Source: Okamejei kenojei (lineage: Eukaryota). Taken from it: DNA of 64,000 bases. The notes under the pieces were generated by a model, which worked only from the letters and a program-made list of their open reading frames with translations, made no database searches and had not been told where the DNA came from. The stretch lies in NCBI GenBank assembly GCA_035221665.1, contig CM069135.1:49290001-49354000 (forward strand), in the 5' to 3' direction. The position numbers and the translations under genes are program-made. Shown piece after piece: positions 3,045 through 63,589 of the stretch; within the stretch, counting starts at the first letter, position 1; every line of letters starts with the position of its first letter.

Positions 3045-3257
3045 GGGGGCTGAATACTTTTGCACGCCACACTTTTCAGTTTTTTATTTGTAATAAAATT
3101 TGGAAACCATATATCATTTTCCTTCCACTTCACAATTATGCACCACTTTGTGTTGGTCTATCACGTAAAATCCCAATAAAATAAATTTACGTTTGTGGTT
3201 GTAACGTGACAAAATGTGGAAAAGTTCAATGGGTATGAATACTTTTGCAAGCCACTG
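3045..3257 (-). repeat. Right TIR of Tc1
   Basis: Reverse complement of 1632-1844 with few mismatches. Confidence 0.93.
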
Positions 3258-3604
3258 TATGTGATGTGTGTATGAAACCATTAAGCCATTGAGATTTCAC
3301 ACATGCCTATCATGCAGGGTTAATGATGTTGGAAATGGTTAACCACAAGTCAATCTGCACCTGATCAGCTCATGTCTCATGTGTCTATGAATTGGCTGAA
3401 GAATCTGTGCCTTCTCCGTGAATGTATAAATACATGGCATAACTTACACAGTCAGAGGCATATACAGTCCGCTCCCAGTAAAATGAATCTGTCTTTCCTC
3501 CACTTACAAGAATAAAACCAATCAAAATCCTAACTTTGTCTTTATGTGGGAACAAACAGTGTGGATGATTCTATGGTTTACAAGACTAATATGAGTGAAA
3601 CATA

Positions 3605-34713: not shown

Positions 34714-35893
34714 TACTGCCCATTGTTGGGACTCATTCAAGCAAGAGGAGAGTAATCCATTGCACTCCTGCTTTGTGCCTTGATGGTGACGAAGATGATT
34801 CAAGGGATCAGTCACTTACTGGAATAAATACCCATTCCCTGACCTGGTCTTGTAGCATTTATATATGTAATGTCAAAAATTCCTGAGTTTCTCTGGCAGT
34901 TTATTTCTAGAATACAACATCTGCTCCTATGAGTCGAGTCTATGGTAACCGTATAGCACATTATTGTCAGCTGGGTGCTGATACACAATGGGGAACTGAA
35001 GTAAGAACTGATGCCTTAAGACTTCTTCAGGCTTGGAGTCAATGTTGAGAATCCCCATGGCCACCTCCATTTGACAATACGCCACTGCACTGACACCCTT
35101 CTGAATCTGGCTGGCTGGTGAGAAAAGCCATATCAAGTGACTGGCTGAATAATTGTCTGAAGATTTGAGTCTGTGGCAGGGCCGGTTGGTTTCGGTTGGA
35201 GCAATACTCATTCAGGAAAATAAAGATTCATTCAACCACTTGTGACTTTCATATGATGATGGTAGTAAGGAACATTCCCAATTTTGGCACAATCCAAAAT
35301 TTCATATGGGGACATGTGACTTCTTGTTCTACTTCAACGCAGGACCTTTGATGAGTGCTGAATGGCTCTACTATTGAGGTTCCTTGTACCTGTTTGATAG
35401 AACTAAATGACTTACTATAACACTTCAGAGGCCATTTGATTCACCCACACTGGTTTTGTTCTCAGGAAAGTAAGTTCCATCTTTAAAGCCAGCTGTCAGC
35501 TAAATGCCTCTGCCTGACAGTTCAGTAGTTACATGATCACACTGCAAATGCCAGCTTTTTTTTTATTCCAAACTTATTTAATTAGCTGAATTGATATTCT
35601 CCAATTTGGAATTCAAGCTCGTCTCCAGGCCTCTGGATTATTATTGTTGCATTAATTATGCTACCATATCCAACAGATAATATCAAACTCCTGTAGACAG
35701 ATTTAATATCTGTTGCAAAATAATGTCAGCTCATGTCAATTGCTGAGTGCAGATTTTCATAAAATCATATTAAAAAGTTACCCGTGGTCAATAATGGCAA
35801 AGGCAACAGTAGCAAAATAACATAATACATTTCATTATTAGGCCAGTTGCTTTCCAAACGTGATAAACTATATACAGACAACTGCTTGTAAAT

Positions 35894-36224
35894 AGTAAGA
35901 TTAAACGAGAACTTACCAGTTTGAAGTTTGATCTTTATTTTATGAGGAGTCGAGTTGAGGGACTACGTGAATAGAAGCCCGTACAGCCGTTGGTGCGTCA
36001 ATCTTCAAAGCAGCGGAATGAATTCACAGCTAACAATGACTGAAGTATAATGGTAAGATGATAAAACTAGAACTACCAGATGAGATCTATGAGGGTGGGA
36101 GCGGAGGGCACATAGTCCCTCAACTCGACTCCTCATAAAATAAAGATCAAACTTCAAACTGGTAAGTTCACGTCGATTAATCTTACTATTTTTACTTCGG
36201 AGTCACGTGAGTGACTACGTGAAG
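35894..36224. repeat. DIRS right terminus and internal complementary region (ICR)
   Basis: 35894-35969 is inverted at 36109-36187, followed directly by attttt-acttcggagtcacgtgagtgactacgtgaag, the complement of the left terminus. Confidence 0.9.
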
Positions 36225-36453
36225 ACTTCAAAGCACTGTGAATTCATGCCGCAGACCGAAATCCGACGTTCACACTGCCTGGATTGACTCAAAAGTCGTT
36301 AACAATCAATCATGCATCAGTAATACATTTGTTAAATGAAATAACAGTTTATTTACAAACAAATCATAACAAACCCCTCTAACTCAGGGGAAAAGTGTAA
36401 CAGTACTGAAACCAGAATCAGCAAACACCCTGAGCCTTGAAATCGGCTTGTGA

Positions 36454-37366: not shown

Positions 37367-38280
37367 GAAAACCTCTGAAAAGTTAGCTCACTGGACCATC
37401 CTGCGGCCGTGAGGATATGGTCTATTGGCAAGTCCATCGCCCTTGCCGCGGAAGTTGATGCCGCCCTGGTGGAATGAGATTTGAATTTATCAGTATCAAT
37501 TCCAGCACTTGCCAGGACCTGCTTTAGCCACCTTGAAATCGTTTGCACCGACACCTTACTGTGTGTTTTTTTGTGACTAATAAACAAAGCCAACTCTGTT
37601 CCTCTCAGAGGTTTAGTAATCTCAATGTAACGAGATAAATGTGAGACTACACACAAGTGATCATCTGCGGGGTATGCTGAAAACACAATCTTACATCCTG
37701 TCATGCCTCTTCTATTATGTTTAAGCAAATCATAGACATAAAATATAATGGCATCAGCCGACACATGCATTCTATCTAGCCGTAGCTTTGCAACCATTTG
37801 TACACGTTGAGCTGAAACCAATGCCATAAGCATGACCACCTTCATAGATAATTTGGCTACTGATAGGCTTGTAACCGGAGCCCACTGGCGAAGAACCATA
37901 AAAACCTCACTCACATTCCAAATAACCGGCATACCTGGGTTTAGGAGGATTAGAATTGAAAAACTCCCTTCATGAATCGTGAAACTAACGGATGTGTCCC
38001 TACTGTATGCAATTCTGCATTCATAGGTAAATAAGAAGACAGAGCACTTCCGGCTGAATAAATCGCACTGTAACTTAATTTTTTGGTCAAAATAAAGAGT
38101 TGACAAACTCCAATACGTCCGTGATCCCTGCAGTGTGATATACAATATTCTGCTGTAGGCAGAATTGCTTGCTCCCACTTCCTTATATAGGTGATATATT
38201 GCTGCTGTGTACTATCCCTGCAGGCCGACGTGAGAACATCCACAGTCCGATGAGACAGTCCTCTCCCCAGGTATGGCCCT
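37364..38280 (-). pseudogene. DIRS tyrosine recombinase
   Basis: ALVSAQRVQ, QTISRWLKQVL..AGID, HSTRAAS, AAGWSSE; N-terminal SAM-like part STQQQYITYIRKW in ORF 37950..38243. Confidence 0.9.
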
Positions 38281-38289
38281 CCTTAAAAT

Positions 38290-40150
38290 CTGCAAATTAA
38301 AGATCAATACGATCATATAAAGGATGTTGATCCCAGTGACTGGATTTACCAGTAGATTTTATTCTTGGGCATAAGCATGTAAGGCTCCCTAACCATTTGT
38401 AATACAACGGGAAACCATGCTTGTGTAGGCCAATCTGGCACTACCAATACCCCTGAAGCAGAGTCCTCCCTTTGATCTTTTGCAAACATCTGCTGATGAG
38501 ACAGAATGGAGGAAATACATACACAAACATTCCTCCGCAATGCAGCGAAAATGCATCCACTGCTACTGCCCCAGTATCTGGTACCATGAAACATATCTAG
38601 GTAACTGATGATTTAATCGAGATGCAAACAAGTCAATAATCTGGTAATCCATACTGATCAATCATTTGGTTAAATACATCCTGATTTAACATCACATTCA
38701 ATGTTGTCATTAAACTGACGTGACCTCTTCCTGGCAAATAAAGTGCTGAAAAGCCAGATATTTTGGTCAATACACAACAGCTCCAAATCTGTTAGCCCAG
38801 TCTATCACAAGACTGTGACTTAACTCCACCCATGTGGTTTACATATGCCACTGCTGTGGTGTTGTCAATCTGACCTGCACATGCATATCCCTCCTTGTAG
38901 AACAATAAGCTTTGAGTCCCATACCAGTGCCCAACAACTCTAAATAATTAATCCCTCTTAATTGAGGAAGCGATGTCTCATCCACATTCCATCTGCCTCC
39001 ACAACTAGAAGAAACATATCTGTTGCACCCCAACCCAGTGCACTTACATCAGTCTGTAATATCAGTGACGGTGATTCCACCAAAACCTTCCTTAAATTTT
39101 TGAAACATGTACTATCCACCATTGTATGTCAGCAATCGCCCCAGCTGACAACATGCATAGGCCTATCAAAATGGCCCCTTTGTATTCTCAGTGCCTGTTC
39201 CTTTGATCGTTGTAATTGTTGATAATGCAGAGGTCCATACTGCACAGCTGGAAAGGCTGCAACAACTTCCCAATTAAACTGGCTACTTGTCTAATCGAGG
39301 CCGTCTGTTCTCGCAATGAGTTAACAATAGTCCTCAAATAACTGATTCAATATATCCCTGGGCAAAAGTTCCCAACATGTGAATTGAAATTATGTAAATC
39401 CCAGGATAAATCATATTTGACTGGGGTGATAATTTAGATTTATCTGGGTGAATAACAAATCCATTTTTTCATAAGTAGATTTCAAACAACTGAAATCGAA
39501 TGATTGAGTTTCAGGCATGAGTCTTTCCAACAATCAGGAATACATCTATATAGGCCCCTTACATCATGCCATGAAGCTTGAAGATGCATATCCAGTTTTA
39601 AACATATTTATTAAATAATTCCAAGGAGCGATAGGTAAATCCATTCGCATGCCTGAATTGCCACAGCTCACAACCCAAATAAATTACACAATTATCATTC
39701 TAATCATCTAATGTGAAATAGACAACTGCGTATAAGCATTCTTTTAAATCAATGGTGGCCATTATCATACCCTTGACACTAATGTTTGCCGTGGAAATCT
39801 CCAATTTTGAAATTGCCTTTAACAAACATAATAATTTGTTCAATTTCGATAAAGCCATAATAAATTCCTACATCCCTCCCAGTCTATTTTTAGATCAGGG
39901 TAATATATCTTTGACAGAAAATTGATTGACTCTTGATAGACAGTATAAGGCTTCTATTACCCTTTCTTATGGTTACACGACTATTCTCTCTCTGAATAAG
40001 GACATTTTCTTCATCTGAAAAAAAAGTTTTACGGACTAGGTAAATTGTTGATTTAGTAACCTGCCGTAGTAACAAATTTCAATTTTTCAACCCTTCACAT
40101 GCACTAAGTATGGACAAATCATGATGACAACAGCTGCTGCCATTGTTTAA
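38290..40150 (-). pseudogene. DIRS A RT / RNase H / adenine-methyltransferase-like remnants
   Basis: INYLELL, DLFASRLNHQLPRY, LVVPDWPTQAWFP, IDLK.AY; many indels. Confidence 0.75.
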
Positions 40151-42670: not shown

Positions 42671-43246
42671 TTCGCCGCTGTGTAGCCACAAATGTACCAC
42701 CAATGGGCCTTCCATCCTCACACTCCTCCTGTGGTAAACTTCAAAAAAAAACTCCAAACTCGCCGAAATGATGACCTTTAAATTATTAAAAAAAAAAAAA
42801 AAACCTTACCTAGGTAACTGTTAAACGAAGAACTGCAATGCCTGTGAGAATCGACGGTTGAAGGCTTAAATTGGGTTCAACCGAAAACGTCGCCCATCTC
42901 CTTCGCTCCGTACGATGCTGCTGACACCCGCTGAATTCTCCGCTTTCGTTGTATAACCCTCCGGTTTAAACTGCCGTAACGGAGAGCGGCTGTTAGCTCG
43001 CAACCCGGCGGAACCTGACACCGCTGTCTGACGTCCATGCGCAACCACCGGCTTGTACGGCTTCAATGCACTGTATCACGTGACTCGAAGTAATAAATTA
43101 ATCTCCCAGTAATATGAAAACAGCATAAAATGCTGCTGAATAAAAGTTATTGCGGCATGATATTACCGGTTCCATTTGAGCAAATTTACCTGTATCATGG
43201 CGCCGACCTCAATCCAAATTAGTTGGCCAAAAAAAAAAAAAAAAAA

Positions 43247-46200
43247 AAAAATAGTACGCTTTAAACGAGAACGTTATTACCAGTTTGGAAGAGTGATTCT
43301 TTATTTTAACGGCGTAGTGAATTTCGTGAAGACTCCCACCAGCACTCATGCCGAAACCTTCAAAAGCACGGTGGTGGGAACTCAGACGCACCAAGACGGA
43401 AAAATGAAAGAGGAAGTAATAGTAAAACTTGAGTTGACTATGCTAGTGGTGGAGAGGGGGGCACGTAATCCCCACCCGCGACAGTGGCTATTGTAGAACC
43501 TTTAAAAGTGTTCTTCACTGGCCCGCCCGCGGGTGGGCGAGGACTTGTTCCATGGGCACATTCCCCCCCCAGGCCTCGCTGTGATTGAGGATGCGCCTAG
43601 TGGAATAGATAATAATAAAGTAGTACACACGCTTCATCCAACACAACCTGATCACCGGCGTGAAATTAGGTTGTACAGGCAACCCGATGATTGCTGGAGG
43701 TGTGTGCTGAATGATGAAGCCCCTGATTTCTGAAGGCTCCTGTAATCCGATATAGTGTGGAGATGTGTGGACTTATGCAAGAGTTGGCCAATCTACTAGG
43801 TATGCCCGAACTCCAACTGCACCCATGAAACACCGGCCGTGGCTCGTTCAATAAATCCTGGACAGAAAGTACAATTGTATGTGATCAGGGGTGTGGCCTC
43901 CATGCTATCCCACCGCCGCTTTTTGAAAGTCCTAACTCGTTGGGCCTGTATCAGTGCCATCTGCAGCCCAACTTGAGGGTGAGCTGTGCCCCATTCATTC
44001 CTTTGAGCCAGCTCCTCGTCGGGTCAGACACGACCTCTACATCCCAGGTGAAGTGTAACTGGGTCGTGAGGGTTGGTATGAACATGTCTCAATGAGTTTT
44101 TAACAACCAGGTTGGTTTGAGCCTATGCCCTTATTCCAGGTATGAGGACAGTGTACTCCTGGCGGTTGATGGCACTGCAGCTAAGGCTAGCATCAAAATG
44201 GAGGCCAGCTAGGAATTCCAGGACATCAGGGATAGTTGCGTGTTGGACGTCTTGTTGGTTACGAGCACAGAATGCCTCCCACTTCCTGATCTGCGTGAGT
44301 ACTGCTTCCGAGTGATTCTCGGCATGATGCTGAGATGAGTTCCATGGCTCATGGTGAGATGCCTGCCTTGATGAGTGTGGTCATTTTAGAACGTGCAGGC
44401 CAACAAGTTTAGGTGACCATGGCATGGATGACTATCCCCCGTAATGGGGTGAGTAATCAATTTGGGGTGTTTTTACCAATCGAAATCCAAGGTTTCAAAA
44501 TTTTAACGACCATTCGGGTACCATGGCTGTGTAGGCCAGTCGGGAATGATCAATATGCCAGTTGCAGAGTCCAGTTTAATTTTCTGCAATACCCGACTGA
44601 TGAGGCAAAATGGGAAATGCGTAGCAAAACCATTTCCCCCATGGATAGAAAACGCATCCATTGCTATTGGCCCAGGGTCTGGTTTCCCAAGACACATACT
44701 TTGGTATCTGATGGTTCAACCTGGTACGCAAAAAGGTCGTATCTGGTGTCGTCCACGATGTGAGCTATAATGTCTCCAAAAATTTGGGGGTTTCAACATC
44801 CACTCGATGTTGTCATTGATACCCGTGACCTGGAGTCCACCACTGTATTAAGCTTCCCTGGCAAATAGGTCGCTGTAATCCAATATTCCTCTTGATGCAC
44901 CAGTGCCAATTGTGTTTGCCAATTCATCACAAGATAGCGACCTGATACCACCCATATGATTGATGTAAGCCACCACTGTTGTGTTATCTATTTGGAGGCG
45001 GACATGTAAGTCCCGTGAGTTAGTACAGTAAGCCCGCAGTCCATGAAATGCCCCCAGCATTTCTATATAATTTATCCCATGTGACTGAAGGAAGGTAGAC
45101 TCACGAGAGTTCCATCTGCCACCACAACTGGACATAGTATCAGTTGCTCCCCAGCCTTGTGCGCTTGCTGTCCCGGGTCATCTTCAAATACAGCGGCTCG
45201 GCAACTGCTGGCACTTCTGGCTGGAGAAGACGAGATACTGAAAGGACTCCTTGCGCGGCTTGTGGAAGCCCATGAGTTCCGTTCTTCCCGGTCTCTGTCC
45301 TGCTGGAGGAGTTGCTCAACTAAGAGCTCCAAGCTCTATGCGACCGTCCCTGCTATGTGCAGCGGACAAGCCGACTTCCCCTGGCCCTACGATATCACTG
45401 GGGCTTCCACCATCGGACCACACCTCCATAAGGTGCTGTCTAGGGTCCAATGGCAGGTCGCCGTGGCCTACCGCCCGAGTAGGCTCATATGACTCCCGCA
45501 CGGACTCTCCGCTAGTCTGTCTTCTTCCAGACTGTGGCGGCCCACCTGTCTGATACGAAGGCAGGTGAGTTGGATCGGCGCCGGCCCCCGGAACCTGGCT
45601 CCCCGGAGTCCGTGCAAGCTTACCTCCACTATCGGCCCAATATTCGGCGTGGAGGCGCATGGTCGGCCGCTCCCAGAGCTAAGCTGACCGACCCTCTACT
45701 GCTGCCACCACCGCCCTTGACCGCAGCCTGACGGGGTGTTTTGCCGGCAGCACCTGCTCATACAGGTCTGCTTCGACGCCAGCAGTAGATCTGCCAGACT
45801 GCTCTACAGCAGATCTCCCTGGCAGTGGTACGTGGTGGTGCACAGCTGAGGGCTCCTTTGTAGTGCATCTGTCCCCCGCGCCCCAGTCCCCTAGGCGTCT
45901 GCAGGAACTTGGGTTGAGGTCGCTGGCAATGAGCGAGGCTCCTTCCCACGTACCTGCTTTCTCCCTCTTTTCTTGGGGGAAGGGGGCTCAAAGTCTGGAT
46001 CAGCAGTCTCCAGCTCCGGTGCGGTGACCATCAGGTGATGAGTCGGGCGCGAGAGTAGCGGGAGCGCGCCGACATCCGCGCCATTCTTGCACACACGTCC
46101 GAAGCTGCTGGTGGTGCTTGCAGCTCCGGGGACAAAGGCCGTTGGCTGGTCGAAGCAGCTCGGCTCCTGGAGAGCGTTGCCTTCCGCTTGCCCTTGTCCA

Positions 46201-46367
46201 TCCTGTGGGAGTAAAGGTAAGCACTTACCTGCCTGTCTTATGAAGGAGCTGGAGGAGAGAGTGCACTCCCCCCCCCCCAGCTTGTCGAGCAAATGCGCGC
46301 GACGATATGTCGCGCATGCGTGCTGGCGGGGTCTTCACGAAGTCACTCACGTGACTCCGAGTAAAAT
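43247..46367 (-). mobile_element. DIRS1-type retrotransposon copy B (internally deleted)
   Basis: Left terminus gtcactcacgtgactccgagtaaaat (46342-46367); RH motif RLQIDNTTVVAYINHMGG; MT motif FPFCLISRVLQKI...PDWPTQPWYP; garbled right terminus at ~43250-43520; gag joined to RH near 45135 with RT missing. Confidence 0.82.
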
Positions 46368-46502
46368 GTATTTTCTTTCAGACATGCATCCAGACCTTTT
46401 TTGAATCTGCATCCACTACCAATGCTTTCCGCACCATAAACCTATATTGTGTCAAAACAAAATGCTCATGTTCTTTTGCCAATCACTTTCTTTCTATATC
46501 GT

Positions 46503-46800
46503 ATAGAAACATGAAAAGTAGGTGCAGGAGTAGGCCATTTGGTCTTTTGAGCCAGCAATGCCATTCAATATGATCATGGCTGATCATCCAGAATCAATGA
46601 CCCATTCCTGCTTTCTCCCCATATCCCTGGATTTGGTTAGCTATATCTAACTCTCTCTTGAATACATCCAATGAATTGGCCTCCACTGCATTCTGTGGCA
46701 GAGAATTCCACAGATTCAGAACTCTCTGGCTGAAAATGTTTTTCATCATCTCAGTCCACACCTTATTATTAAACTGTGACCCCTGGTTCTGGACTCCCCC
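46503..46800 (-). mobile_element. CR1 3' end
   Basis: atagaaacat...gtaggtgcaggagtaggccatt; gcagagaattccacagattca. Confidence 0.8.
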
Positions 46801-47082
46801 ATATAGCTTTTACCCCCTATGGCAATTGCAATTTCCTTTGGGCCTACTATTTCTAATGCCCAGGCAGTTGTAACCCCAGATCTCTCTGTTCTTGCATTAC
46901 TTTGAAAGTGTGCCCTCTACTTTTCTCTTCTTTTCTCATTCTCCCCATCAAAATCTAGCTCATCACATTTCTCAGCATGAAATTTCACCTGCCACCCATC
47001 TGCCACTCCACCAGCCTATCTTTATCTTCTGTCTAATATTACTAATATCCATACAGTATAACCTTTATTCCCTGTTGTGCGT

Positions 47083-47420
47083 ATAAAATTATGAAGGCAT
47101 AGATAGTGAGCATGCACAGTCTTTATCCCAGAAAAAGGCAATAAAAAACTAGAGGGAATGGGTTTAGGCTGAGAGGGGAAAGATGTACAAGGGTACTGAG
47201 GGGCAACCTTTTTCTCTCAGAGATTGGTATGTATGGGCAGAATGAGAGGAAGTGGTTGCGGTGGGTTCAATTACAATATTTAAAAGACATTTAGACAAGT
47301 ACATGGATGGGAAAGGCTTAGTGGGATATGGGTCTGATTTGTGCAAATAGCTTTAAAAAAAACATCTTGGGCAGCATGGGTGAGTTAGCCTTAAAGGTCT
47401 GTTTTCATACTTTATAACTG
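47083..47420 (+). mobile_element. CR1 3' end
   Basis: tataaaattatgaaggcatagatag...tttaaaagacatttagacaagtacatggat. Confidence 0.75.
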
Positions 47421-47929
47421 ATTCCCATGAACTGCAAAATTAAATATTGTGCCTATTGTATCCACATTCAAATGATAAACATATATATTATGAAAAGCAG
47501 CAAGATGTAGTACCAACGCCTGTGATACTGCACTGTACACCTCTCTTGTCCATAAAACAAACCTTTACCACTACCCTCTAGTTCCTGTTGTACAATTTTG
47601 TATCCATACTGTTTCAGACATTTTTCTTCCATCTGTGATTCAATCTTGATGACAAGCCTTTTGCGGCACGATAGGAAATGCTGTTTGGAAATGCATAATA
47701 TTATAGCGGCACCTGCTGGTGCTCGCAGGTAGTCGGACCCTGCGGTTGGGTTCCTCGGGCATGTGACTCTGGGAGGGGTTGCGTTTTTGCTTGCTTTCTG
47801 GGCTGTGCCCCTTCTGTCGCTCCAGACCACCGTTGTTTTGTTGGTGTGTTTGAGACCCATCGTTAGTTTAATAGTTTTTGATTAAAAAACTTGATTTAAA
47901 TCATCGACACCTGTCTCCATCCACCAAAT

Positions 47930-47941
47930 TGGTGACCCCGA
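47930..47941 (+). promoter_or_regulatory. Primer-binding site complementary to the tRNA-Trp 3' end
   Basis: tggtgaccccga, 3 nt after the LTR-terminal CA. Confidence 0.75.
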
Positions 47942-48699
47942 TGCGTCCATCCAAAGTCGGACGAAGAAATGCAGGACAATTATCTTCCCACCGGCGCTTC
48001 CAGTGCCCATTAGAACGCTGTCAGCTTGAGATTGCCGGCATTTTGGCCCAATCAATCCCCGGTGTGATTCGCCCATGTCGAGGCGCAGTTTCATCTGCAC
48101 CACGTCGTGGCAGATGAGACGAGATACTTCCACGTGGTGGGAGCCCTGCTGCAGGAGTCCGCCTCCCGTCTAATGCCCTACCTTCGGGACCCTGCAACCG
48201 CCAAGTAAGACGGCCTCAAGGCCCTCCTGCTGCGTACGTTCGGACTCAGCCGACGGGACAGGGACGCCCGCATCCTGCAATGGACAGCTTGGGAGATCGC
48301 CGGCCGTCCGTGCTGAAGGCCAGGATGCTCGCGCTTATGGACAGCCAAGGCCGTGTGCCTGTTGTTTGAACAGGCGTTCCTCGAACAGATGCCCGATGAT
48401 GTCCGTCTGATGCTGGCCGGCGTGGACTTCAACGATCCCCAGCAGGTCGCAGAGCGAGCAGATGAGCTCTAGATGGCCAGACATCAGGATGACTGCACCA
48501 TTGACCACATGCCCGCACCAGCGCGCCTTTCACCTTGGCGGCTACGCCCTCACCTCCACTGAGGAGCCGCAGAAGTGTCCCGAGACTCATGGTAGGCACC
48601 GTTGCTGCTACTACCACCTCCGTTTCGGCATGGAGGCTCGCCGCTGTCGTAAGACCTGCACATTTCAGGAAATGCATCAGCCGATCATCTGTAAAGGCG

Positions 48700-50891
48700 A
48701 TCGCCTCTACGTCCATGACCGTCATTTCGGTCGCCGTTTCCTGGTGGACTGCGGAGCGATCATCAGCATTCTCCCCCCGACTGGCCGTCAGACAACAGCC
48801 CCGCTGCACCGCGCAGCTCGCCTGTCCCTTAGCTTGACACCGTCATTAAAGTCGAGGGCTCATTCGCTACCTTGCTCTCTGATTTCCCCGAGATTCTTAC
48901 GCCCAATTTCAGCGGGGCGGCTCCCCGACACACGTCGTGCACCACATCCCCACCGAGGGCCCCCTGGTGCATGCTCGGGTGCGCCGCCTGCCTCTGGACC
49001 AGCTGCGCATCGCCCGGGATGAATTCCAATTGATGGAAGACATGGGCATTGTCTGGTGGTCCGACAGCCCGTGGGCCTCCCCGCTCCATATGCTCCCGAA
49101 AGCTTCTGGGGGGTGGAGACCATGCAGTGATTACAGGTGCCTCAACGTGGTGAACACGGCGGACCGCTACCTGGTGCCTCATATCCAGGATTCTCCGCGC
49201 ACCTCGAGGGCGCCGCTTTCTTCTCGAAAGTGGACCTGGACTGGGGTTATAACCAAATACCCGTCCACCCCAATGACGTTCCCAAGACCACCACCATTAC
49301 CATATTCGGCCTGTTTGAATGGCTTCGTATGCCTTTCAGCCTGAAGAAAGCCGCTCAGGCGTTCCAGCGGCTCATGGACCAGGTTGGGCGGGGCCTGCCT
49401 TTTGTTTTCATTTATTTGGATGACATTCTGGTTGCCAGCGCTTCGCAGGCGGAGCACGGCACCCACCTCCATAATTTGTTTCAGCACTTCTGCGATCACA
49501 GCCTGGTAATTAACCCCGCGAAGTGTGTGTTTGGCCTGCATTCCATTTCGTTTCTGGGTTACCCCGCAGGGTGCTACGACGCTCCCTGCGATGGTTGAGG
49601 CCATCCGGCAGTTTCCCCGGCCTCTCACCATCAAAGGGCTGCAGGTGTTTGTCGGCATGGTGAATTTTTATCACCGCTTCATCCTGGCGGCGGCTGCCAT
49701 CAAGCGCCTCCTGTTCCAGTGCCTGGCGGGCAAGTTGCGAGACCTGGTGTGGTCCACTGAGGCGGAACCGGCATACGAGGGTGTCAAGGCAGTGCTGGCT
49801 AATGCCATCATGCTGGTGCACTCACACACATCCGCCCCCACAGCGCTCACCGTCAACGCCTCGGATGCTGCTGTTGGTGCCGTTCTGGAGCAGTTCGTTG
49901 ACAACCGCTGGCAGCTGCTGGCATTTTTCAGTCATCAGCAGCGGGATCCAGAGTGCAAATACAGCTCTTTCGACCGAGAGCTCCTTGTGCTCTACCTGGC
50001 TGACAGGCATTTCATGTATTTCCTCGAGGGCCGCGCTTTCACCGCTTTCACGGACCACAAGCCTCTTATTTTTGACCTCAGTAAAATCACGGATCTGTGG
50101 TCTGCCAGGCAGCAGAGGCACCTTGACTACATCTCGGAATTCACGACAGATACCGCCTTGCAGCTGGGAAGCTTAACATCGTGGTCGACGCCTTGTCTTG
50201 CCCCGCCAGGCCCTCCGTTTTGGCTCTCGATCAAGGCATCAACTACGGCGAGCTGGCAGTAGCGCAGCAGGCTGATGCCAGTATGGCGGACTATCGCACC
50301 GCCAACTCTGGCCTCCGGCTAGCTGAAGTGCCTTGTGGCGCAACCGGTATCAATGTCCTGTGTGATATCTCCACAGGACGCGCCCGCCCGGTCATCCCCG
50401 TCAGTTGGAGACAGTGGGTTTTCAACGGGGTCCATGCTTTAGCCCGTCCATCCATACGTGCGACGTCCACCTTGTTGGCTGCCAAGTTTGTATGGCATGG
50501 ACCCCATAAGCAGGTGGCTGCCTGGGCCCGCACCTGTATCCCATGCCAGACCTCCAATGTCCAGCGACACGTGCAGCCTCCTGTGCAGGATTTCGCTATC
50601 CCAGAGGGCAGGTTCCTGCATGTCCATGTGGATCATGTTGGTCCCTTACCACATTCCCGAGGCGCCACATACCTGCTCACTATCGTTATCCATTTCACGA
50701 GGTGGCCAGAGGCGATTCCACTTTCGGATACCTCCGCCGAGGCTTGCACCCAGGCTATGGCGGCGTACTGGAGCGCCCGGTTAGGGGTACCCTCCGACAT
50801 CATCAAGGACAGAGGAGCCCAGTTCACCTCTTCCTTGTGGTCGGCCCTAGCACAGCTCTACGGTGCCCGGCTGCACCAGACGACTGCCTAA
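48700..50891 (+). pseudogene. Gypsy pol (PR-RT-RH-IN), frameshifted
   Basis: ORFs 48937..49344, 49137..49598, 49525..50262, 50181..50891 carry consecutive pol motifs. Confidence 0.9.
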
Positions 50892-53800
50892 TACCCGGAG
50901 AATAACCGGGGTTGTCGAAAGGTGTCAGGGCAGCGCACCAGTAAATCGCAGCTAGAAGGCCCGTGATATTCTGCAGTCCGGACAGGATGGACAGCTTGAT
51001 TCATTTTTAAGTGGGTCTCTCGCTGTGGTATTCGTAGTCACGCGCTAAAGAGGGATGTGGTGCTCTCGTTCTGGCCTTGACATTGTTATATGGCTAGGAT
51101 TACTGACGCGGAATTTTCCTCCGCCACCCGACAGGATGGTTACGGGCCCTTGTATTGCCTCGCACCGTTCGTGAACAGGGTAAGCACCGTTGCTCCCGTC
51201 CCCATTCCAGGCATAGGTTCGTACGCGCATATGTTTTCCCTACGCAGAGTATGCAGCGGTTCATATGAAAGGGCCTTTCCAGGGCGGCCGTGCAAGTGCA
51301 TGTCCACATTGGGCTGGGTTGCCGGGATGGGGTCTAGTTCCCACAGCCCGTCGCAAGCGGGTGGATGTTGATCGACCGCGGTTGGTCGTTGTCCACCGTT
51401 GACTTTAGGGGTTTGTCCGCACGGCCGTGTCCACACATAGTATGACCACTGTTACCCGTTTTGTTTCGCATGCAACCTTTGTACGGGCCCCCCCACAAAT
51501 TAGCGAGACCCTCATCGCCTCCCAGCCATGATTGCTGCACATACTGGTTTACGGGGCCCGACCCCTTGAGAGACCTAGACGTTCCGATTCATTCGGCTCC
51601 ATGCTCATTCCGTAACTCGGGTTCTGTGGGGGGGGGGGGCATTAGCGGCAACCTGCTGGGCCGCAGGTAGTCGACCCACGGATGGGTTACACGGGCATGT
51701 CATTTTGCACGCTTCAGTCTGTGCTCCCTACCGTCGCTCAGAACCCACCGTGGTGCTGGAACCCTTTATGCTGGTTGGTTTGAGACCAATTGTTATTTTT
51801 TTGTGTTTTGATAAACTAGAATTAAAAACACGACGCTTTTCTCAACAGCAAAAATCACAGCAACTGAATTCATAGTCAACATCTCAGACATGAAAAATGT
51901 AAGTTATATTGATCTACCTGACAATGATAAGCAGGGGGGTATCTCAATCAATCCATGCTTCTCCTAGTGGACGATAATCTGCCCAATTTCCGTTACTCAA
52001 TCACTAAGTGTTGAACTGCCCTGTTACCGGAATGTGTATTCAATTTTTGACGAGGTTAGTTAAAAAACTGCCTTTTTTTCAAGACATCAGCCTACCCTGA
52101 CCTAGATAGTTTGAGGGAAATTATAGTGAGGCTCGTCCATTTGTTACCATACAGTCCAGAGCATTCAAAGATCCAGCCTACTTTGCTCAAAGTGATACAC
52201 AGTTCTGTGCAGCTGGTCGTTAAAATGAACCCTCTATTTATGGTTTTTGGTATACGCCGTTTCTCCCACTAATCGGCAACCATCCGTCACCCTACTCCGG
52301 TGTTCCCCCTCCATATAATCTTCCCCATACTAGTCCTACAATCCCTAGTTAACCTCCTTCTTCAATCGCCTACCCTATCAATTTACCTCTTATATTCCTA
52401 CCCATGGCTTTTACATTTAAACCTATCATCTGCTTATTTGACATTTACTGCTTTTCACCTTGGGCACTTACTTCATAACCTGTGTAGAAAATGATTGAAG
52501 TACCCTGCATGCAACCTTAAATATTTTGCAACAGGGTACCCTGGTCAGTACCACATGATTTTAAACCTGATCATGGGAGCACTTGAGTGTCAAACTAAAT
52601 CGGACTCTTTGTGAGGGGTATTAAATCTGACTTGTGGGGCTGGTAGGGTGGGAACAGCCGATTAATGTGAGACGGTTCCCAAGCTGGTTAAGTGTAAATT
52701 TCTCCGCGATTTCTAGAAGCAATGATTAACTAAAATTACAATGATTGTAAGGCTGGGTAAGAAGAAGCTAAGTCCAGGAAATGTGACTGTAAAAACTAGA
52801 GTCCTACCAATTGCCTCAGTATGTTTGGACAAAGACCCATCATTTAATTTATTTGAATTTGTACTCACAATTTTGGAGATTAATAATCAAATCACTGTGG
52901 TTAAAGTGCCTCATTAATAAAGCCATCTTTTTATACAATTAGGTTTATCCTTGTTGAAATACCAGCAAGGAGCGTCGTACATCATTAACATTGCGGCCTA
53001 TATCTCAAGCAACCCCCCTCACACGGGCCTGTGTACTATGTTGTTGTGGCTAAAATTGATTAGACAGGCTATGAGATCAAGGGGCTGACAGAAATCGTGG
53101 GGATTCTGGATATACAAGTCATTTTGTAGATACCCTCTTAAACTATAAGTGGTGTTACCAAACGCTAAAATGTTTTGTCGTTTATTCAGAGTCACGTTAA
53201 TAATGGAAACAGTTTGCTGCACCTTGACCTGTTTTATTGAATGTCGTAATAAATCTTTGTTCCACCAAAAGCTTAAGCTACAGGAATTGTGACAATTACA
53301 TCAGAAAAATTATTAACTTATTCATTTCGCAGTTGAATTGCGACGTTGTGCGTGGTTAGATTTTTCCTGTGGCGATGAGAGTTGTTATGATCATGTTATG
53401 GCATGGAAATGGATACAAGATATAAAGAATTATCATTGAAACAAACTGTAGTAATAAATGAGAAAAAAGAACGATAAATTAATTATGTACATATTTGATG
53501 TTCATTTCACGGGTCAATGTAAAAAACATTAAGGGGAGAAAGGCAGCAGCAAATATTGAAATCAAAGTGATGTGAAATTCAGTGTACAGGCAAAAGCGAA
53601 GAATGTAGACCTTCGTCAGAATGATAGGAAGGACTCGAAGAGAGTGGATTAAGGTGAGCACCTTGGGAACATAATGGAGTGCCAGGATAAATTATTTCTA
53701 AAATAACGCACGTATTAAAAGCAAATCATAAACAGTACATTCAGTAATTCAGCAAACAGAGTTATACCATTCTTATTTTCCATTTTCATCTTAATAAACG

Positions 53801-54184
53801 GCCACTTCTCTCATCATCCTGTTATTATCCCAAAGTTCCCATTAAATTTGCCACCCAGTTGTTTCATACTGAATAATTATATTCATAAGATTATAATGAA
53901 GGTAAACAAAACAACACTTTTAATTTCCTACTATGAAAAAATAAGAGCAGAACTTCTTGAGCACTCGCAAAAGAATTCTGCCCCTCTGTGGGATAGTCTC
54001 TATTTCTGAATTTTGTTCTGGTGACTTTTTCTGAGCAATCTCCTGCCTGCTATTTTGACGCACCCTTTTCCAGTCAGTATACTCTGAAAATTGGTCTAGT
54101 CGATTAAATTTATTGGCAATATATATTATTCTTTTTTACATGCTTACCGAAATATCTAAACCAATTATAACATTATCATCTAAA

Positions 54185-57100
54185 TATATGATATACGAGG
54201 AACCTACCTGTTTCGAAGTTTGAGCGGTATTTTAACGAGGAGTTACGATGAGGAATTTACGTGAAAACCCGACTCCCGCGGTTACGCATAACTTTCAAAA
54301 GCAACGCAGATAAAACACAGAAACCAAAGACGAGTGTAACATAGTTAAGGATCATAAAAAGGACTGTGAAACCAACATTAGACTCAATTTTATTTTTTAG
54401 TAGGGTGGAGTGGAGGGCACTAACTCACATCTTAACCTCGTAAAATAACGATTCATACTCGAACAGGTTGAGTTTCGCGTGTTATCTTACTTTTTACTTC
54501 GGTGATTCCACTGAGTGGACACGTGATGAAGTTTAAAGCTGTCTTGTGTTTGTTATGTCGTAGACTTAATCCCGGACACATCAGGGCTAATAAAACACAA
54601 TACTAGTAAGCCCACAATGTTAGATATTTTCAATCCAAGTTTGTATGCTGAATCCATTTATACCTCCTTATATTGTGGGAAAAAAGGATTACCGTACAAA
54701 GATTATATTAGTGACTACCAACCTGAAGTATACAAGTTAATAGCAACAAAGCGAGAGAATATAGTTTTAAAAAGGACTGGCAGATTGTGAGATCCGAGGG
54801 TACACAAAAGCGGAGAAACTCGGCGGTGTGCAAGCGCATCTTAAGGAGCGAAGGTGATAGGCCACTTGCGGCCCGGCACCATTCTTCAACTGTCAGGATC
54901 AGGGGAAAACGGAGAGATATAGACGGTGATGTGAAGGATAAGGAAACAATGAGGAAAGATATGCAAAAAAGTATCGTGATAAAGGAACAAGCCTTTGTTA
55001 AAGCGGTATTGTGGTGTATGAAAAGAGAAGACTGGTGCAACGAGGGTTGGGAGAGATAAGAGTAGAGAATGAATGCCCAGTGCCCAGGGGCGGAGAGAGT
55101 GGGAAGAGAACAGCAGGTGAACAAAAGAGAACTTCTATATTCTAGGCCCAAAGATGCATATCTCCCAAAGCGGATTATGAGTGGCTGTCCTCAGCTTGCG
55201 GTGTTTGCTTCCTCTGGCCGTGGAGGCCCAGGACCGAGTGTCGAGTGAATGTGGAGGGAGTTGAAGTTGGCAGTGCCACACGGGATGTCGGGTTTGGGTT
55301 ATGGCGACAGCGGAGCGGAGTTGTTCGGCGATGCAGATCCGCAAGCCTCCGCTAGGTCTCACCGAGATATATCATCTGGCATTGAGCTCGGATGCAGTAG
55401 AATAGTTGAAGATGCAGGTAAACGCTGTCGGACCTGGAAGGGACTGCTTGGGGTCCATGAAAGGGTGGGAGGGGGAGGTAAGACAAAGTGGTTGCTTTCT
55501 TCTGGGTGCATTGGGAAAGTGCCCGGGAAGGGGTTGGTAGAGTGGGGAGAGGGAAGAATGGACAAGGAGTGGCGAGGGAGCGGTCTTTGGCGAAGGCTGA
55601 ACAGGGGGGGAGATGGAAGAGGCTTTGAGGGTCACGTTGGAGGTGGCGAAAACTGGCGAGGTCTATATGTTTATTTGCCGGCTGGTTGGTGAAATAGGAC
55701 CAGGGGGACCTGCCCTGTTTGCATGGGGATATGGGGGAGAGAGGCAGTGTTTGCGGGGTATCGGAGAGAGACCTGGTGCAATGCTCTCAATCAATAGGTG
55801 GAGGAAGCCCGTTCTCTGAGATAGGCCCAGTTGGTTGACCTGTGTGAAAACCCATCCTTGAGCAGATCGGCGTAGAGGACGGAAATGGGAAAGGGATGGA
55901 GTACTTACAGAACAGGGAGGGAAAGTTGTCCACGGTTAGATGTTGCGGAGTCTGAAGGTGTAGGGGATGTCGCTGAGCGTATCCCCTGGCAATTAGTGAA
56001 TGGTAGGGTCAAGGAAATGTAGGGGAAGTGTTCGAAATGGTCCAAGTTTAAAGTAGGCCGGATGAAGGTGTGGTGAAAAGGAAGAAGTCAGTTATAGAAT
56101 GAATAGTGCTCCCAAACACCGCGGTTTCAAAACTGTCATAGTGTGAACAGTTTGTGTAGAACGTGAAATAGTTTCTTCTTTACTAACCCTGGCAGTTTAA
56201 AAATTTGATCATGTGTACGGCCCGCTCCCTTCACCGCGAACTGACTGCCCCCAGTGGAGGGTAGATTTAAGACATAAGTGTCTTCACGCTAAATAACCAA
56301 CATTCAACATTTTAGCTAGTTGAAAAGCTTGTGTGTGGCCTGTTGTGCGTAAGCCAGCAATGTCTGTTCCGTGTTCCTCGAAAAAGTTGTCCGTCTCTTA
56401 ATTCATTGTTCTAAATGTCTAACACACAACAAAGGCAACTTCAATAATGAAAAAGCTTGATAGTTTAATTTGTTTCCAGTATCTCCTCTGCTATCTTTGT
56501 TTGATAAGATCGTAACATAGATTAAAACGTTATATGTATTTATAACATGCATAACAGTCCTTAACACACATTTGTAATGTTTGCACTTTGGCTGAAGACC
56601 TGTGACATTAACATGACAATTTTATGTTAAACTATCCCATGACAACCCTTCAATTAGCAGTTCCATCTCTATGTAGAGGATAGTATAGCTCACATCCCAA
56701 ATCCTCTTGTATTTCTAGGTTGTGCATGTGAAACATTTCTGTTCATATTCGATAATGGCTGCGACCCAAGGGATTCTATATCACCATCATAAGTCCTAGA
56801 TGAACGAAAACCACGCTTCATTGGTAAGCACGTAACCTTAAATGGTGACCTAAAGCCAAATTGGCAGGAATTCCAAAAACAGGAGTAACATTCACATAAT
56901 CATCAGAATATTTTGGACTGTGTGCAAAATCTTCTATTTCTTAATATGTGTCATATATTGTTTCTGTGTGCTATCTCGCCATGATGTGCCAATAACTGTC
57001 AAGTTTGGTCCGACAATCCCAGTTCCTGTAGTGGTCTGGGTCAAAACCTGCAGATTAACAATTTCATATATGCATATAATGGGTAATCTTCATTTGTTAC

Positions 57101-60100
57101 TGGATTAGTCAAGATATCACTTACAGTTAAGAATATGCATATACGGTTCTTTAATCATATTCAGCCAAACTGGGAACCAAGGTTGAGTTGGCCAATTTGG
57201 CACTACCAACAATCCGGAAGCTGAATCTTGCTCTATTTTCTTCAAGCATCTCTGGATCAGAGCAAATGGTGGAAAAGCATAAAAGAACATTTTTCCCAGT
57301 GTAATAAAAATGCATCTACTGCAACTGCGTCCGGATCAGTGTTCCCAAAACACATAATGAGGCAAGTGATGATTAAGCCTGGATGCAAACAAATCAATTT
57401 CTGCAACCCAAATCGTCGAACAATATTCTTAAATATTGGTGGCTTAAACATCCATTTCGTATTATCTTTAAAAATCCTGGACCTTTCATCTGCTACCACA
57501 TTGTCTTTACCTGGAGTATAGCTTACTGCAATCCATATCTGCCGACCAATACACCATTGCCATATCTCATTGACCAGACAATCACATGATACTGATCCAA
57601 CTCTCCCCATGTGATTAATGTAAACCACAGCTGCTTTATTGTGTAATTGTATTAACACCTGCTAGACCTTGTTTAGCACAACAATATGCTTTAAAGCCCA
57701 TAAAAGGCCCCCAATAACTCCCAATAGTTAATACCATACTCTTGGAGAAACACTTGTTCTTCAGTTTTCCATCTACCTCCACAACTGGAGGATAAAATCT
57801 GTGGCCCCCATCCGAGAGCACTAGCATCTGTATGTAAACCATTTCAGGCGTTTAATTCATAATATTTATTAGCAGCTGTGTGACATTTTCCTTTTTTTAA
57901 CCCACCCATTGTAAATTTCCAATACAGCTTCTTTTGTTAATTACATAGGCCTGTCAAAATGGCCTGCCTTCTCTTTGAGAGCTTGTATCTTGTACCTTCG
58001 AAGTTATCAATTAAATGTAATGAAACCAAATTCTACTGCAGGAAATGCTGCTAACAAGTTCACCAATGGTTGTCACCATTTCTCGGATGGAAGGATAAGG
58101 TTTTGAATGAGATAATGACAAGTTACCAAAATATCATCGACTTTATCTGCTGGTAAAGGTATTAACATAGTCACTGAGTTAATTACAAACCCCAAAAGTT
58201 AAATTGTTTGTGCTGGCTTGCAGCTGGGGCTTAATTAGATGAATTCAAGAACCTTAGCTTACCACAAAGCTTTAGTAACTGAGACTGATCCTCAGCTGAC
58301 TCCTGATAAGTCACTAATGACCAGAATGTCATTGAGATAAGCCATAATGATGTGCATTTTGTGCTCTAATTGGGCTAAACTGGTTTCAACAGTTTCGTAA
58401 AGAGTAAAAAGCTGAACTCAGTCCATTTGGCAAAGCTTAACTGCCAGAATTGTCACAACCAATTAAAATTTAAGTACACCGAGACCTGATGCATAGGTAC
58501 AGAATAATAGGCGTCTTTTCATCAATCTTAGCCATATAACAACCTGCTGAATTAAATATTTTGCAGTATTCAATGTCTCCATTTGAACATGTTTGTATTC
58601 TACAAACTTATTTAGACCTGTAAGGTCCAGAATACTTCTGCAACCCATCATCTGTAATGCCTTCTATCTACATTAAAGACAAATTTTATGCTCGTGTTCA
58701 AATCTTTTCCATTACCTCTTTTCCAGATTAATTAGGCAATGTGAACATAAATCTCTGCTTTTTCAATTGCAGAAAACACGAAAACATAAGCAGGTTTATT
58801 CTGTACAGGAGGATTAACCTCTTTTTTTTAAAAGTAATAGTAGTTTAAATGAAACTGCTCGTAATATACTGATCAAAAATAATAGTAAGCCAGTCTTAAT
58901 AAACTTTTTGTAATCTCCCTCTAACTGGAGATTAATCCGCAGTTTCTTTAAGCAGGGAACAAGTCTTTAATTCCTCTGCATATGAGCGTGGTGTTCTCCT
59001 TATCCCTGAATTCGGGTAAGTATTTTGGTTGTGCAATACAATAAAACTTCCTTGACATATTTCTGCCTCTATTTCCAATATCAAATCCCCTTCTGGGCGA
59101 AAATACCTTTTCGTCCAAAGACGAAGGTTTCATGCAGCTAAAAATTTAGCTTTTCATCCAATTTCAATAAAATTAGGCAGATTACTCCAAACAGATAACC
59201 AAGAGCTTAAACACCACTTGCTCAACACAGGTATGCAACCTTGGGTGAAAAAATGGCCCAAATAGCCATTTATATTATATAAAATTTCATAGAAAGAAAT
59301 TGCACAATAGCGTCTTTATTTATGTTTTCCTTTCATTTGCCAAAAGCCATAATAGCAGCAGAATAATTTGTGAGGATTTTTAAACCTCACTATTTTGACG
59401 CTCTCATATTGGAGTCATGGATGCCCATATAACGGATAAACCGTAGCTCTTCCAATGAGGCACAATTTCCTGTGCTGTGCAATTTTAATATTTCAATCAT
59501 CACAGAATCATGAAGTTGGTGAGATACCATATATATATGTTGGCAGCCTAGGATTTCTTCCATAGCTTCACCACTTCCTTCATATATAGCAAAACCTTTT
59601 GCTATTCCATGCATCTTTGGCCTCTTTTCATATTTTTTCATTTTATTTTTATTTTTTATTTTGTGGTGTGCTTTCAAAATGCAAAATCACCATCAACAGG
59701 GTCTGCCTTCTGCAGCCCTAAATCAATTTGGGATTTCATCCATGAGACTTCTTCCGGCCCAAATCCTGGGTCCGGAGTTCCAACTTCCAATTAGGCCCAT
59801 GCATATTCAGAATAATTAAACCCTCAGGCTAACCTTAGGAACCTTCAGGTACTATGACCCTAGTCTCATAATTATTTGGAGAACTTTCTCCATATGCTCC
59901 ATAATCAGTTCCACATAGTTTACTTATGTGAGGATTTTTCAATGTCAGAGTCATCAGAACCACGGCCTCACAGATTTTTTATTTTATTTTATTTTCCATT
60001 TTTCATATTCGGAGCATTTCTCTCCGTGGTTATCATTTTGTAAACTAATTCGCTAACGGGTATATCTGCGGCCACCGGTATCGGAACCGCTCCGCACTAG

Positions 60101-60416
60101 CTTTCCCGTATATTTATTTTTTTCACCCCAGGAAGCATTTAACCGCGAATATAATTTACTTCATCATTTGTGCTTATCCAGCACTAACATGACTCTGACC
60201 TGTTTTTACTTAACAAATTTCCTATACTGCTGGACCTACCCACTGCGCCCCGCTAAAAAACCCAACTTTACTGTTCTTACCTGCGGGCCGTTCCGACCGC
60301 TGCGAGGAGCTGCTCCTTACTGCAGCTCCACCTTCTGCCGTCAGCGTCGACGTCATGCCGTTACCAGCGTGAGGCGGGTTCTTCACGTAGTCACTCACGT
60401 GACTCCGAAGTAAAAT
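54185..60416 (-). mobile_element. DIRS1-type retrotransposon copy C (degraded/garbled)
   Basis: Left terminus ttcacgtagtcactcacgtgactccgaagtaaaat ending at 60416; RT ILDLTGLNKFVEYKH; RH VVYINHMG...YTPGKDNVVADERSR; garbled right terminus/ICR 54190-54540. Confidence 0.82.
54790..56080 (-). mobile_element. Penelope-like element (GIY-YIG region + pseudo-LTR) inserted in DIRS C
   Basis: FPGTFP, PKQS.QVRQ.FTC, YIGET-type motifs across frames, followed by the pseudo-LTR family motif at 54795-54900. Confidence 0.78.
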
Positions 60417-60537
60417 GCCTGATTAAGTGGAATAACAGAGCATTCACCCGACTATTGGGAGTGGAATCATAGAATTTACAGCATGAAAACAGTTCCTTCA
60501 GACCACCACCAAACTCCCATTTACACTAATGCCAGTG

Positions 60538-60833
60538 TAGTTTAGCTTAGAGCTACAGCACAGAAACAGGCGCTTTGGCCCACCGAGTCCACACCGACCA
60601 GCAATTCCCGCACATTAACACTATCCTACACACTGGGGACAATTTACATTTATACCAAGCCAAGTAACCTACAAACCTGTACGTCTTTGGAATGTGGGAG
60701 GAAACGGAATATCTCGGAGAAAACCCACGTAGGTCAGGGGAGAATGTACAAACTCTGTATAGACAGCACCTGCAATCAGGATTGAACCTGGGTTCACTGT
60801 CGCCGTAAGGCAGTAATTCCACCGCTGCACCAC
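60538..60833 (-). mobile_element. V-SINE/HE1-type SINE
   Basis: Highly similar to 34410-34713. Confidence 0.88.
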
Positions 60834-61889
60834 ATGTTTTACCACTTGCCCATATACAGGGTGTAATTGACAATGGCTGATGAATCTACCATTAGAACAT
60901 TATAGTAAAGTGGAGCGCCCAGACAAAACTCATATGGTCATAGGTAGAATGAGCACCAGATGTCCCGATTAAAGCAGGGTCACTGGAACTTTGAAGAAGC
61001 AGCAGCTTATTTCAAAATCATTAGCTGACTCATTGATATGAAATTGTGCAAAAAATACACGTTTCTCTCCACATGCAATTTCCTTTAGTGCAACCTGTAC
61101 ATACGACTTGTCAACCTATTAATGTTGACACAGAAATAGGAAAGCTGGTCCTATTTATTTTCATTCAGCTCTACACTGGAACAATCTGGCAGGAGTCATT
61201 GGCACATTGTGATGCTATTGTGCACTATGAAATTTCCTTTTACTTCAGGTGCAGCTGACAATCTGAAAGACAAGTACTAAGCATATTTCAGGAATATTGC
61301 AATAAACAAATGTCGGCAAAATATGTTAAATTGCAGTTGAAAATGTATGACATCGAAAATGAATTCAGGAATTCAACAGAGATGTTCAACAAAGTCCATA
61401 AAAGAAAACCATGTGTACTACTATTCAATTAAGATCAATGTAAACTGCACAAGGACATCTTTTTCACACAGAGCAAGCTAGAATATTTATTATTTCTATA
61501 TAGCTGTTTCACCAGGCTGTTAAAATGATAGATACGGTTGTTGTCAGCAGGTAGCCTGAAAATGTTTTCCTTGCTCACACAGAAAACAACTGCCTAAAAT
61601 TGGATTGCACATAAATAATGATAAGGAGGTAGGTTGATGTTCTTCGTCTACTTCTGGATATGGTTCTGACAGCCACATATAATCTGCTAAATTGTGAAAC
61701 AGTCTTAGTTCATAAGTACATTTGAAAGGAGCTCATAGGACAAAATGGTCTTGTCTGTGAGGTCTTAAAACATGGCGGTACAAGTTCACTTTTAAACAAG
61801 TTAGGGTCCCTCTCCTGTCATGGATTCATAGAAAATTGGAGCCGTAGGGAGATAACATTATGGAATCAGACCCTCCAATCCGTTTGTAG

Positions 61890-62012
61890 ACAGGAACTGC
61901 AGATGCTGGTTTATATCGATGATATACGCAAAGTACTGGAGTTCAGGCAGCATCTCTGGAAAATAAAGGATGGGTGGCATTTTGGGTCAGAAATTGCCTG
62001 TCTGAAAAAGGA
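61890..62012 (-). mobile_element. Penelope pseudo-LTR fragment
   Basis: ggaactgcagatgctggttta...caggcagcatctctgga motif. Confidence 0.65.
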
Positions 62013-62301
62013 TTCTGATTTTCTACTACTTCTACTACTCACCAACACACTGGGGTCCATATATAGTAGCCAAATAACCTATTTTACTTCGGAGTCACGT
62101 GAGTGACTACGTGAAGAAGGCCGTCAGTCGTCATGTGCGTCATTACGTCTGAAGCATGCGCCAACGACTGACTGGCAGGCGTGTTGCATCTCTCCAGCGG
62201 TAAGTTTTAAAAACCGAGGTAAGTGTTTTTTAATAAGTTACTTACGGTCGTTGTTTGGCAGGTTCTGTTGTTAGTTTTTCTACCAACAGAACTAACCTAC
62301 C

Positions 62302-63448: not shown

Positions 63449-63589
63449 CGCCCAAGGTAGGACAGTCTAGTCCCTTGTGGGACAATTTACACACCTCTAA
63501 CTTACAAGTAGGGGGAAGGCTAAAACACTCAAAATTTACCAAATCGCACATATGTGTTTCCACAACAGGAAAGATTTGAGATACAAGCT

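Follow-up and report, generated by a model that had tools for sequence, protein, structure and literature searches.

The DIRS1-like retrotransposons AcaDIRS1 and AcaDIRS2, of the mollusc type, are the closest described relatives of the elements considered here. As described in PMC3266345, they carry gag, a frame for reverse transcriptase, RNase H and methyltransferase (RT-RH-MT) and a recombinase, in that order, between ATT termini, with a short conserved inverted terminal repeat (ITR), an internal complementary region (ICR) complementary to both ends and no long overlap of open reading frames (ORFs). We analysed a 64,000-nt stretch of the genome of the skate Okamejei kenojei (the window), which contains four elements of this type, A to D, and scanned the genome (2.76 Gb) for further copies. 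Unlike the mollusc elements, several skate families combine gag with RT in a single ORF, and the recombinase frame of the skate elements mostly lacks a start codon of its own. Our subject is a consensus splice donor in the leader of these elements, about 137 nt from the left end, and a second pair of candidate splice signals further downstream.

Retroviruses such as foamy virus (PMC3694450) and HIV-1 (PMC6625037) have a strong major donor in their 5′ leader, ahead of gag, and their genomic RNA stays unspliced. U1 bound at the major donor of foamy virus suppresses early polyadenylation independently of splicing (PMC3694450), and a splicing-independent role of U1 is likewise argued for HIV (PMC6625037). 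DIRS elements differ from retroviruses in having neither long terminal repeats (LTRs) nor env; as they have no LTR, no duplicated poly(A) site is identified near the leader. The Ty1/Copia element EVD (PMC5580714) has a single gag-pol ORF with a donor at the gag/pol border; there too, U1 blocks premature termination, independently of splicing. Splicing in Copia yields Gag alone, whereas the splice predicted for DIRS joins an upstream frame to the recombinase, and the DIRS leader donor lies in the leader.

For the mollusc-type elements the passages covered mention no splice signals. The strings 'splic' and 'intron' occur zero times in PMC3266345, PMC9210276 and PMC3783388, and PMC7192593, in the passages covered, names splicing only for its marker intron. 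A DIRS leader donor was not found in the main texts of the literature searched, which did not extend to Poulter & Butler 2015 and Goodwin & Poulter 2004, and none is reported in the parts covered of sources including PMC9341512, PMC4495291, PMC10294476, PMC4157794, PMC6681497 and bioRxiv 10.64898/2026.05.21.726589. The literature covered, partly in excerpt, likewise offered no explanation of how DIRS elements express three frames, especially the recombinase, from one RNA.

The leader donor in the window and across the genome

Each of the four leaders contains AG/GTAAG (the slash marks the putative exon end), a rare motif with 10 occurrences in the 128 kb of the window's two strands. The sites are as follows.

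62216..62224, + strand: donor d2 of element D, GAG/GTAAGT (GT at 62219, offset +138)
62197..62205, + strand: upstream donor d1 of D, GCG/GTAAGT (GT at 62200)
60275..60283, - strand: donor d2 of C, CAG/GTAAGA (GT at 60280, offset +136), with no pyrimidine acceptor before gag
46223..46231, - strand: donor d2 of B, CAG/GTAAGT (GT at 46228, offset +139), followed by CTTACC
42804..42812, - strand: donor d2 of A, TAG/GTAAGG (GT at 42809)
42812..42964, - strand: insertion of about 150 nt in the leader of A; 42873-42961 resembles a dispersed repeat (83% to window 629-715)

A reading of the window made earlier from the sequence only had placed these five GTs exactly where we find them. It had also claimed a near-constant distance from the left terminus; the constancy stands, and the values for D, C and B are each one less than it gave. 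We count offsets from the initial T of the terminal TTTTACT; the earlier count began at the A of ATT. The donor of A lies at about +288 as it stands, a shift for which the insertion accounts: compared with its relative L063, A has about 150 extra nucleotides between the d1-like block and the donor, of which only 89 (42873-42961) match a repeat that recurs elsewhere in the window. An Rfam search of the window gave no hit, and 'Penelope', as the earlier reading named this insertion, is a putative label. The leaders had further been called otherwise dissimilar. They are in fact homologous, with 58–61% identity upstream of the donor (shuffle mean 50–52%, 97.5th percentile 58–59%) and identity at shuffle level downstream of it, so the four copies are not independent. 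They span both main clades of a tree of 26 copies (L128, which has no anchor, was excluded), C belonging to one and A to the other.

The terminal motif has 24,027 exact matches in the genome, 11,301 of them in left-end context. Donor statistics, including the frequency at the fixed offset, refer to 100 copies, the first listed of these left ends, all on contig C1. AG/GTRAG lies at +125 to +150 in 83 of the 100, compared with a background of 71 in 16,400 windows (0.4%), which extends the positional conservation to this larger sample. One of the 17 without the motif is an ICR rather than a left end, and most others have point changes or deletions. When the leaders are clustered, 29 of 37 clusters have AG/GTRAG at +100 to +160 and the other 8, L086 among them, keep a nearby leader GTAAG donor, giving 37/37 overall. 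A d1-type second donor near +117 is present in 40 of the 100 copies.

The conserved block runs from -3 to +6 and decays at -4 and +7, thus coinciding with the window of pairing to U1. In 28 cluster representatives, which were chosen for AG/GTRAG so that only the free positions are informative, +3 is A in 28/28, +6 is T in 26/28 and -3 is C or A in 26/28. A whole-element alignment of 44 copies gives the d2 column a conservation of 0.93, the highest of any donor column bar one site in the terminal repeat. Identity to a coding copy is 0.80–0.90 at +121 to +140 (9 of 10 comparisons) and 0.30–0.70 at +141 to +160. The families compared are old, since their median identity at four-fold sites is only 43% (median amino-acid identity 68%; 251 pairs). 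On these alignments, we conclude that the leader donor is a real, family-wide feature.

Two details of the left ends may be added. A subfamily with one extra G before the donor still reads G/GTAAGT (L163, L167-L169, L174, L176, L178, L181, L182, L184 and L187). Between +45 and +70, GCGCATGCGC and TGACGTC or TTACGTC motifs recur within the inverted repeat; they look like the NRF1 and CRE sites of promoters.

Retention in coding-dead families and a proposed role

The donor outlasts the genes. It is retained in 16 of 18 copies of the largest cluster, whose median longest ORF is 96 aa, and in 5/6, 3/3 and 1/2 copies of three further gene-decayed families, which suggests that it is the RNA that requires it. 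In the largest cluster the first 140 nt are 85–89% identical to coding relatives and the interior about 62%. The commonest leader cluster (18 of the 100: L031, L113, L128 and 15 other loci) consists of coding-dead, non-autonomous elements that are full-length and have near-perfect ends.

Folding predictions pair the donor more strongly than in shuffled sequences in 26 of 32 representatives (mean 0.67 versus 0.50; these sequences are related and not independent). The predicted partner is the sequence just downstream, often the donor's own complement, as in D:

62240..62245, + strand: ACTTAC, complement of the D donor and predicted 3′ arm of its hairpin (pairing probability 0.83 versus 0.58 shuffled), also branch-point-like

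The donor of HIV sits in a hairpin too. As in retroviruses, a conserved consensus 5′ splice site lies in the leader upstream of gag, and because it is perfect even in lineages with dead genes it likely serves the production of full-length RNA. We regard it as an even call that the motif is a retrovirus-type major splice donor, bound by the U1 small nuclear ribonucleoprotein (snRNP) and needed in cis for full-length RNA. A promoter in the left repeat would fix the offset; U1 binding would shield the RNA from premature cleavage or help transcription; the predicted hairpin, in which the donor pairs with its own complement, would damp donor use, and the RNA that is copied would stay unspliced. Splicing from the leader donor would then be a minor route, opening a short leader intron in one clade and, in the other, perhaps leading to the acceptor of the recombinase. 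What the sequences show is the position, conservation confined to the U1-pairing window, retention in coding-dead families and a lack of intron-less copies in the families tested; U1 binding, start site and splicing are putative.

Signals at the gag/RT border and the recombinase start

A second donor, d3, lies 11 to 18 codons upstream of the GGRL motif of RT; although the protein around it varies, 19 of 24 representatives have xAG/GTA there. The other five comprise two mis-anchored sequences, two without an anchor (one of which reads AA/GTA) and one without GT. The third base of the d3 codon is A in 19/19, always GTA, compared with 80/303 at 19 other conserved Val columns, and the site is mostly in phase 0 (in the RT frame in 15 of 19 as measured). 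Its counterpart a3, a pyrimidine-rich tract with CAG, is found in 20 of 22, within the last codons of RT-RH-MT and precisely on a codon boundary of the recombinase frame (phase 0). Among the copies listed, that frame usually opens only 5–15 codons upstream of a3, mostly without a Met there. The sites in the window are:

63454..63462, + strand: donor d3 of D, AAG/GTAGGA (GT at 63457), at the gag/RT border
58968..58976, - strand: d3 homologue of C, GT absent
57048..57068, - strand: candidate a3 of C, where RT-RH-MT ends and the recombinase frame starts
38290..38310, - strand: candidate a3 of A, at the recombinase start
44393, - strand: a3 homologue of B, no AG

Splicing from d3 to a3 would remove RT and be in frame. 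Families with dead genes tend, by their alignments, to lose d3 or a3: in family 4, to which C belongs and which shares a stop near the RT start, the d3 GT is absent, the AG is missing from d3 in family 6 and from a3 in family 11, and d3 cannot be aligned in family 0. A frameshift into the recombinase was considered and rejected, as the short overlap holds no conserved slippery heptamer (by eye). Goodwin and Poulter reportedly mentioned spliceosomal introns in some recombinase retrotransposons in 2004.

The recombinase would on our proposal be made by splicing from d3 to the in-frame acceptor at its start. Tentatively, and with a confidence that stops a little short of even, we suggest a retrovirus-like programme in which the hairpin-guarded leader donor controls full-length RNA and an optional RT-RH-MT intron fuses Gag or a transframe peptide to the recombinase. 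Such a fusion would explain the expression of an ORF that has no start codon.

The assignment of A to D to the DIRS1-like type rests on their RT and recombinase matches, short inverted termini and ICR, with gag, RT-RH-MT and recombinase in the expected order. RVT_1 and Phage_integrase were matched in a genomic relative and in A, and homology was then mapped onto A–D; in the same two sequences a PCIF1_WW match over the MT region is weak and below cutoff, and RNase H has no Pfam match of its own. ITRs with an ICR complementary to both termini are present in A and in 20/20 full elements. With the motif used the ICR was not found in B or C, and D runs off the window. By inspection, ATT stands at the left ends and mostly also at the right ends. 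The elements and their parts are:

~43096 to 35890, - strand: element A, left terminus decayed
46367 to ~43255, - strand: element B, ~3.1 kb, internally deleted
60416 to ~54180, - strand: element C
from 62081, + strand: element D, runs off the window
62081..62118, + strand: left terminus of D, exact complement of the ICR type at 36190-36225
60379..60416, - strand: left terminus of C
46331..46367, - strand: left terminus of B
43060..43096, - strand: decayed left terminus of A
36109..36226, - strand: ICR of A
35890..35969, - strand: right terminus of A, with donor-like CTG/GTAAGT ~25 nt from the end
within 37291-38211, - strand: Phage_integrase match of A

B ends about 160 nt before A begins (window 43096-43255), and elements often stand head to tail or very close, as here, at the right end of L039 and at L116/L117. 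Inside A, a LINE-type RT fragment is inserted between recombinase and ICR (36454-37227, +). A Gypsy-like LTR retrotransposon remnant with RNase H and integrase lies between B and C (48400-50900, +). Elsewhere the window holds a second RT frame in an AT-rich region (28742-29707, -) and an open Tc1/mariner transposase frame of 345 aa (1986-3023, +) within 215-nt inverted repeats (1630-1844 and 3045-3259).

Other uses of the leader donor

The sequence-only reading had proposed that the donor could serve to skip gag and reach RT or the recombinase. For RT this is not supported: in families 1, 3, 5, 10, 12, 14, 17 and 31 the cleaner copies have gag and RT in a single frame (other copies carry indels), and in families 2, 8, 15, 19, 20, 26 and 29 gag ends shortly ahead of RT, with the -1 frame open onward from a T TTT TTA heptamer at which the two overlap. 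Judged by these frames, RT needs no acceptor. We dismissed TCTTTTTTAG near the gag end as a candidate RT acceptor and preferred a -1 frameshift heptamer: the RT frame is already open at this point, with no conserved ATG after it. That the donor acts mainly by productive splicing past gag and RT to a recombinase mRNA is, in our estimation, unlikely. The acceptor at the recombinase start is conserved (20/22), coding-dead family 0 retains both leader donor and a3, whose window ranks in the top 2–8% of interior windows in 4 related copies, and in most long-leader families, in which d3 is weak, codon 16 of the recombinase is a Met from which an mRNA of this kind could be translated. But the link between this Met and a weak d3 amounts to one split in the tree, a Met near the recombinase start is missing from most short-leader families, no in-frame ATG is conserved in the leader, and RT needs no acceptor at all; dead families, moreover, keep the donor though they need no recombinase mRNA. 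The leader donor is not supported as the main source of recombinase; it is the donor at the gag/RT border that fits the recombinase frame.

Alternatively, the donor could open a short intron in the 5′ untranslated region (UTR) that ends just before gag, where the earlier reading had seen pyrimidine tracts with CAG in A, B and D. These tracts exist, that of B only 26 nt from its donor, and C has none:

62276..62289, + strand: candidate acceptor before gag in D, giving a 71-nt intron from d2; gag ATG at 62302
42729..42742, - strand: candidate acceptor before gag in A, 81 nt from the donor
46203..46216, - strand: pyrimidine tract with CAG in B, 26 nt from the donor, use with d2 unlikely

Grouped by leader type, 10 of 16 short-leader families, including those of A and D, have a pyrimidine tract with YAG within 95 nt of the donor, compared with 0 of 13 long-leader families, which hold most copies, so the acceptor is not general. 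We use threshold counts only for this test, as the shuffle mean is distorted by the penalty value. Distances from donor to acceptor are 47 to 81 nt, with 26 nt in B, and an acceptor at a workable distance is not present in all families; d1, lying upstream, would add about 20 nt to the 47–59-nt cases. An intron of 26 nt is far below the usual spliceosomal length. Retrotransposition should remove such an intron, yet neither of 2 variant contexts in a short-leader family lacks it (292 copies are intact). We therefore hold a 5′ UTR intron as the donor's purpose to be decidedly improbable.

Intron-less copies were sought at other sites as well. In the largest coding group none of 37 variant contexts at the leader donor qualified (1,554 normal; exons starting G-N-A are not covered), nor did any of 21 at a3 (2,851 normal), and by inspection none of the deletions listed for the 100 copies ended at the splice sites. 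The lack of intron-less genomic copies at the tested sites means that the RNA copied is unspliced, or that spliced RNA is not copied. GT..AG ends occurred in 0 of 14 listed joints, from a comparison of 7 contig runs of uncertain kind (2 probably DNA) with two copies, which is no evidence either way.

Several observations weigh against the retrovirus-like proposal. The sample, made up of the first exact matches on one contig, is biased to young copies. Recent leader exchange or a structural role could explain the donor in dead families; L032 is chimeric, with one family's leader on another's body (compared with L078, it suggests that templates were switched between families). For A and B no hairpin is predicted (0.03 and 0.07), and AATAAA is scattered along the elements, with no clear or specific poly(A) site adjoining the donor. 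The coding-dead family 0 still has a3, and d3 is weak in the long-leader clade (5/9 U1 matches). Among 74 recombinase homologues, the named ones mostly from marine invertebrates, 46 place a Met of their own no more than 3 codons from the recombinase start, and Gln stands at -1 in 29, so the CAG of a3 is partly inherited. Arg is encoded by AGN at most conserved columns anyway (223/260). A Gag-recombinase protein without RT is absent among 143 homologues, and the gag search was empty; this test is weak because the best matches are only 56–61% identical. Stop and restart at a near-cognate CTG or TTG codon could also lead into the recombinase.

The heptamer GGTAAGT, moreover, recurs at the right terminus, and its complement is found in the ICR, so the motif may serve for binding or pairing. 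Among the right ends of L031-L130, at least 64 of 75 read G/GTRAGT about 25 nt from the end, often about 20 nt past AATAAA; a site of this kind could influence how the 3′ end is formed, or be spliced to flanking sequence. The segment from ICR to right terminus has the opposite orientation in L034 to that in L033 and L039. On the reading that these occurrences invite, GGTAAGT would not be read by U1 at all and would serve as an RNA or single-stranded cDNA structure, or as a protein-binding site, in packaging, priming or circle formation. Its presence in non-autonomous families, the predicted pairing with its own complement and the failure to find a spliced copy agree with this. The pattern of conservation does not: a fixed 5′ arm with a variable 3′ arm is the opposite of a purely structural constraint, conservation ends at -3 and +6, and the right-end variants (CTG/GTAAGT, CAG/GTGAGT and CAG/GTAAGT) all remain compatible with U1. 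We rate such a role as quite unlikely, if slightly less so than the 5′ UTR intron. Least probable, and by our estimate very much so, is that the donor is kept because it supplies host genes with first exons. Chimeric transcripts are a plausible by-product of thousands of copies that each have a strong donor close to a presumed promoter, but the donor's conservation spans transposing families and so argues for selection on the element and not on single loci.

If the leader motif is indeed a retrovirus-type donor, the principle is not new, since control by splicing is known in retroviruses and Copia elements. Living and dead families would separate what the RNA needs in cis, the leader donor, from what protein expression needs, namely d3 and probably a3. 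The signals described here give exact candidate junctions for the expression of three frames in DIRS, above all the recombinase. Given the 11,301 or more intact left ends of this genome, many chimeric transcripts could also draw on the leader donor.

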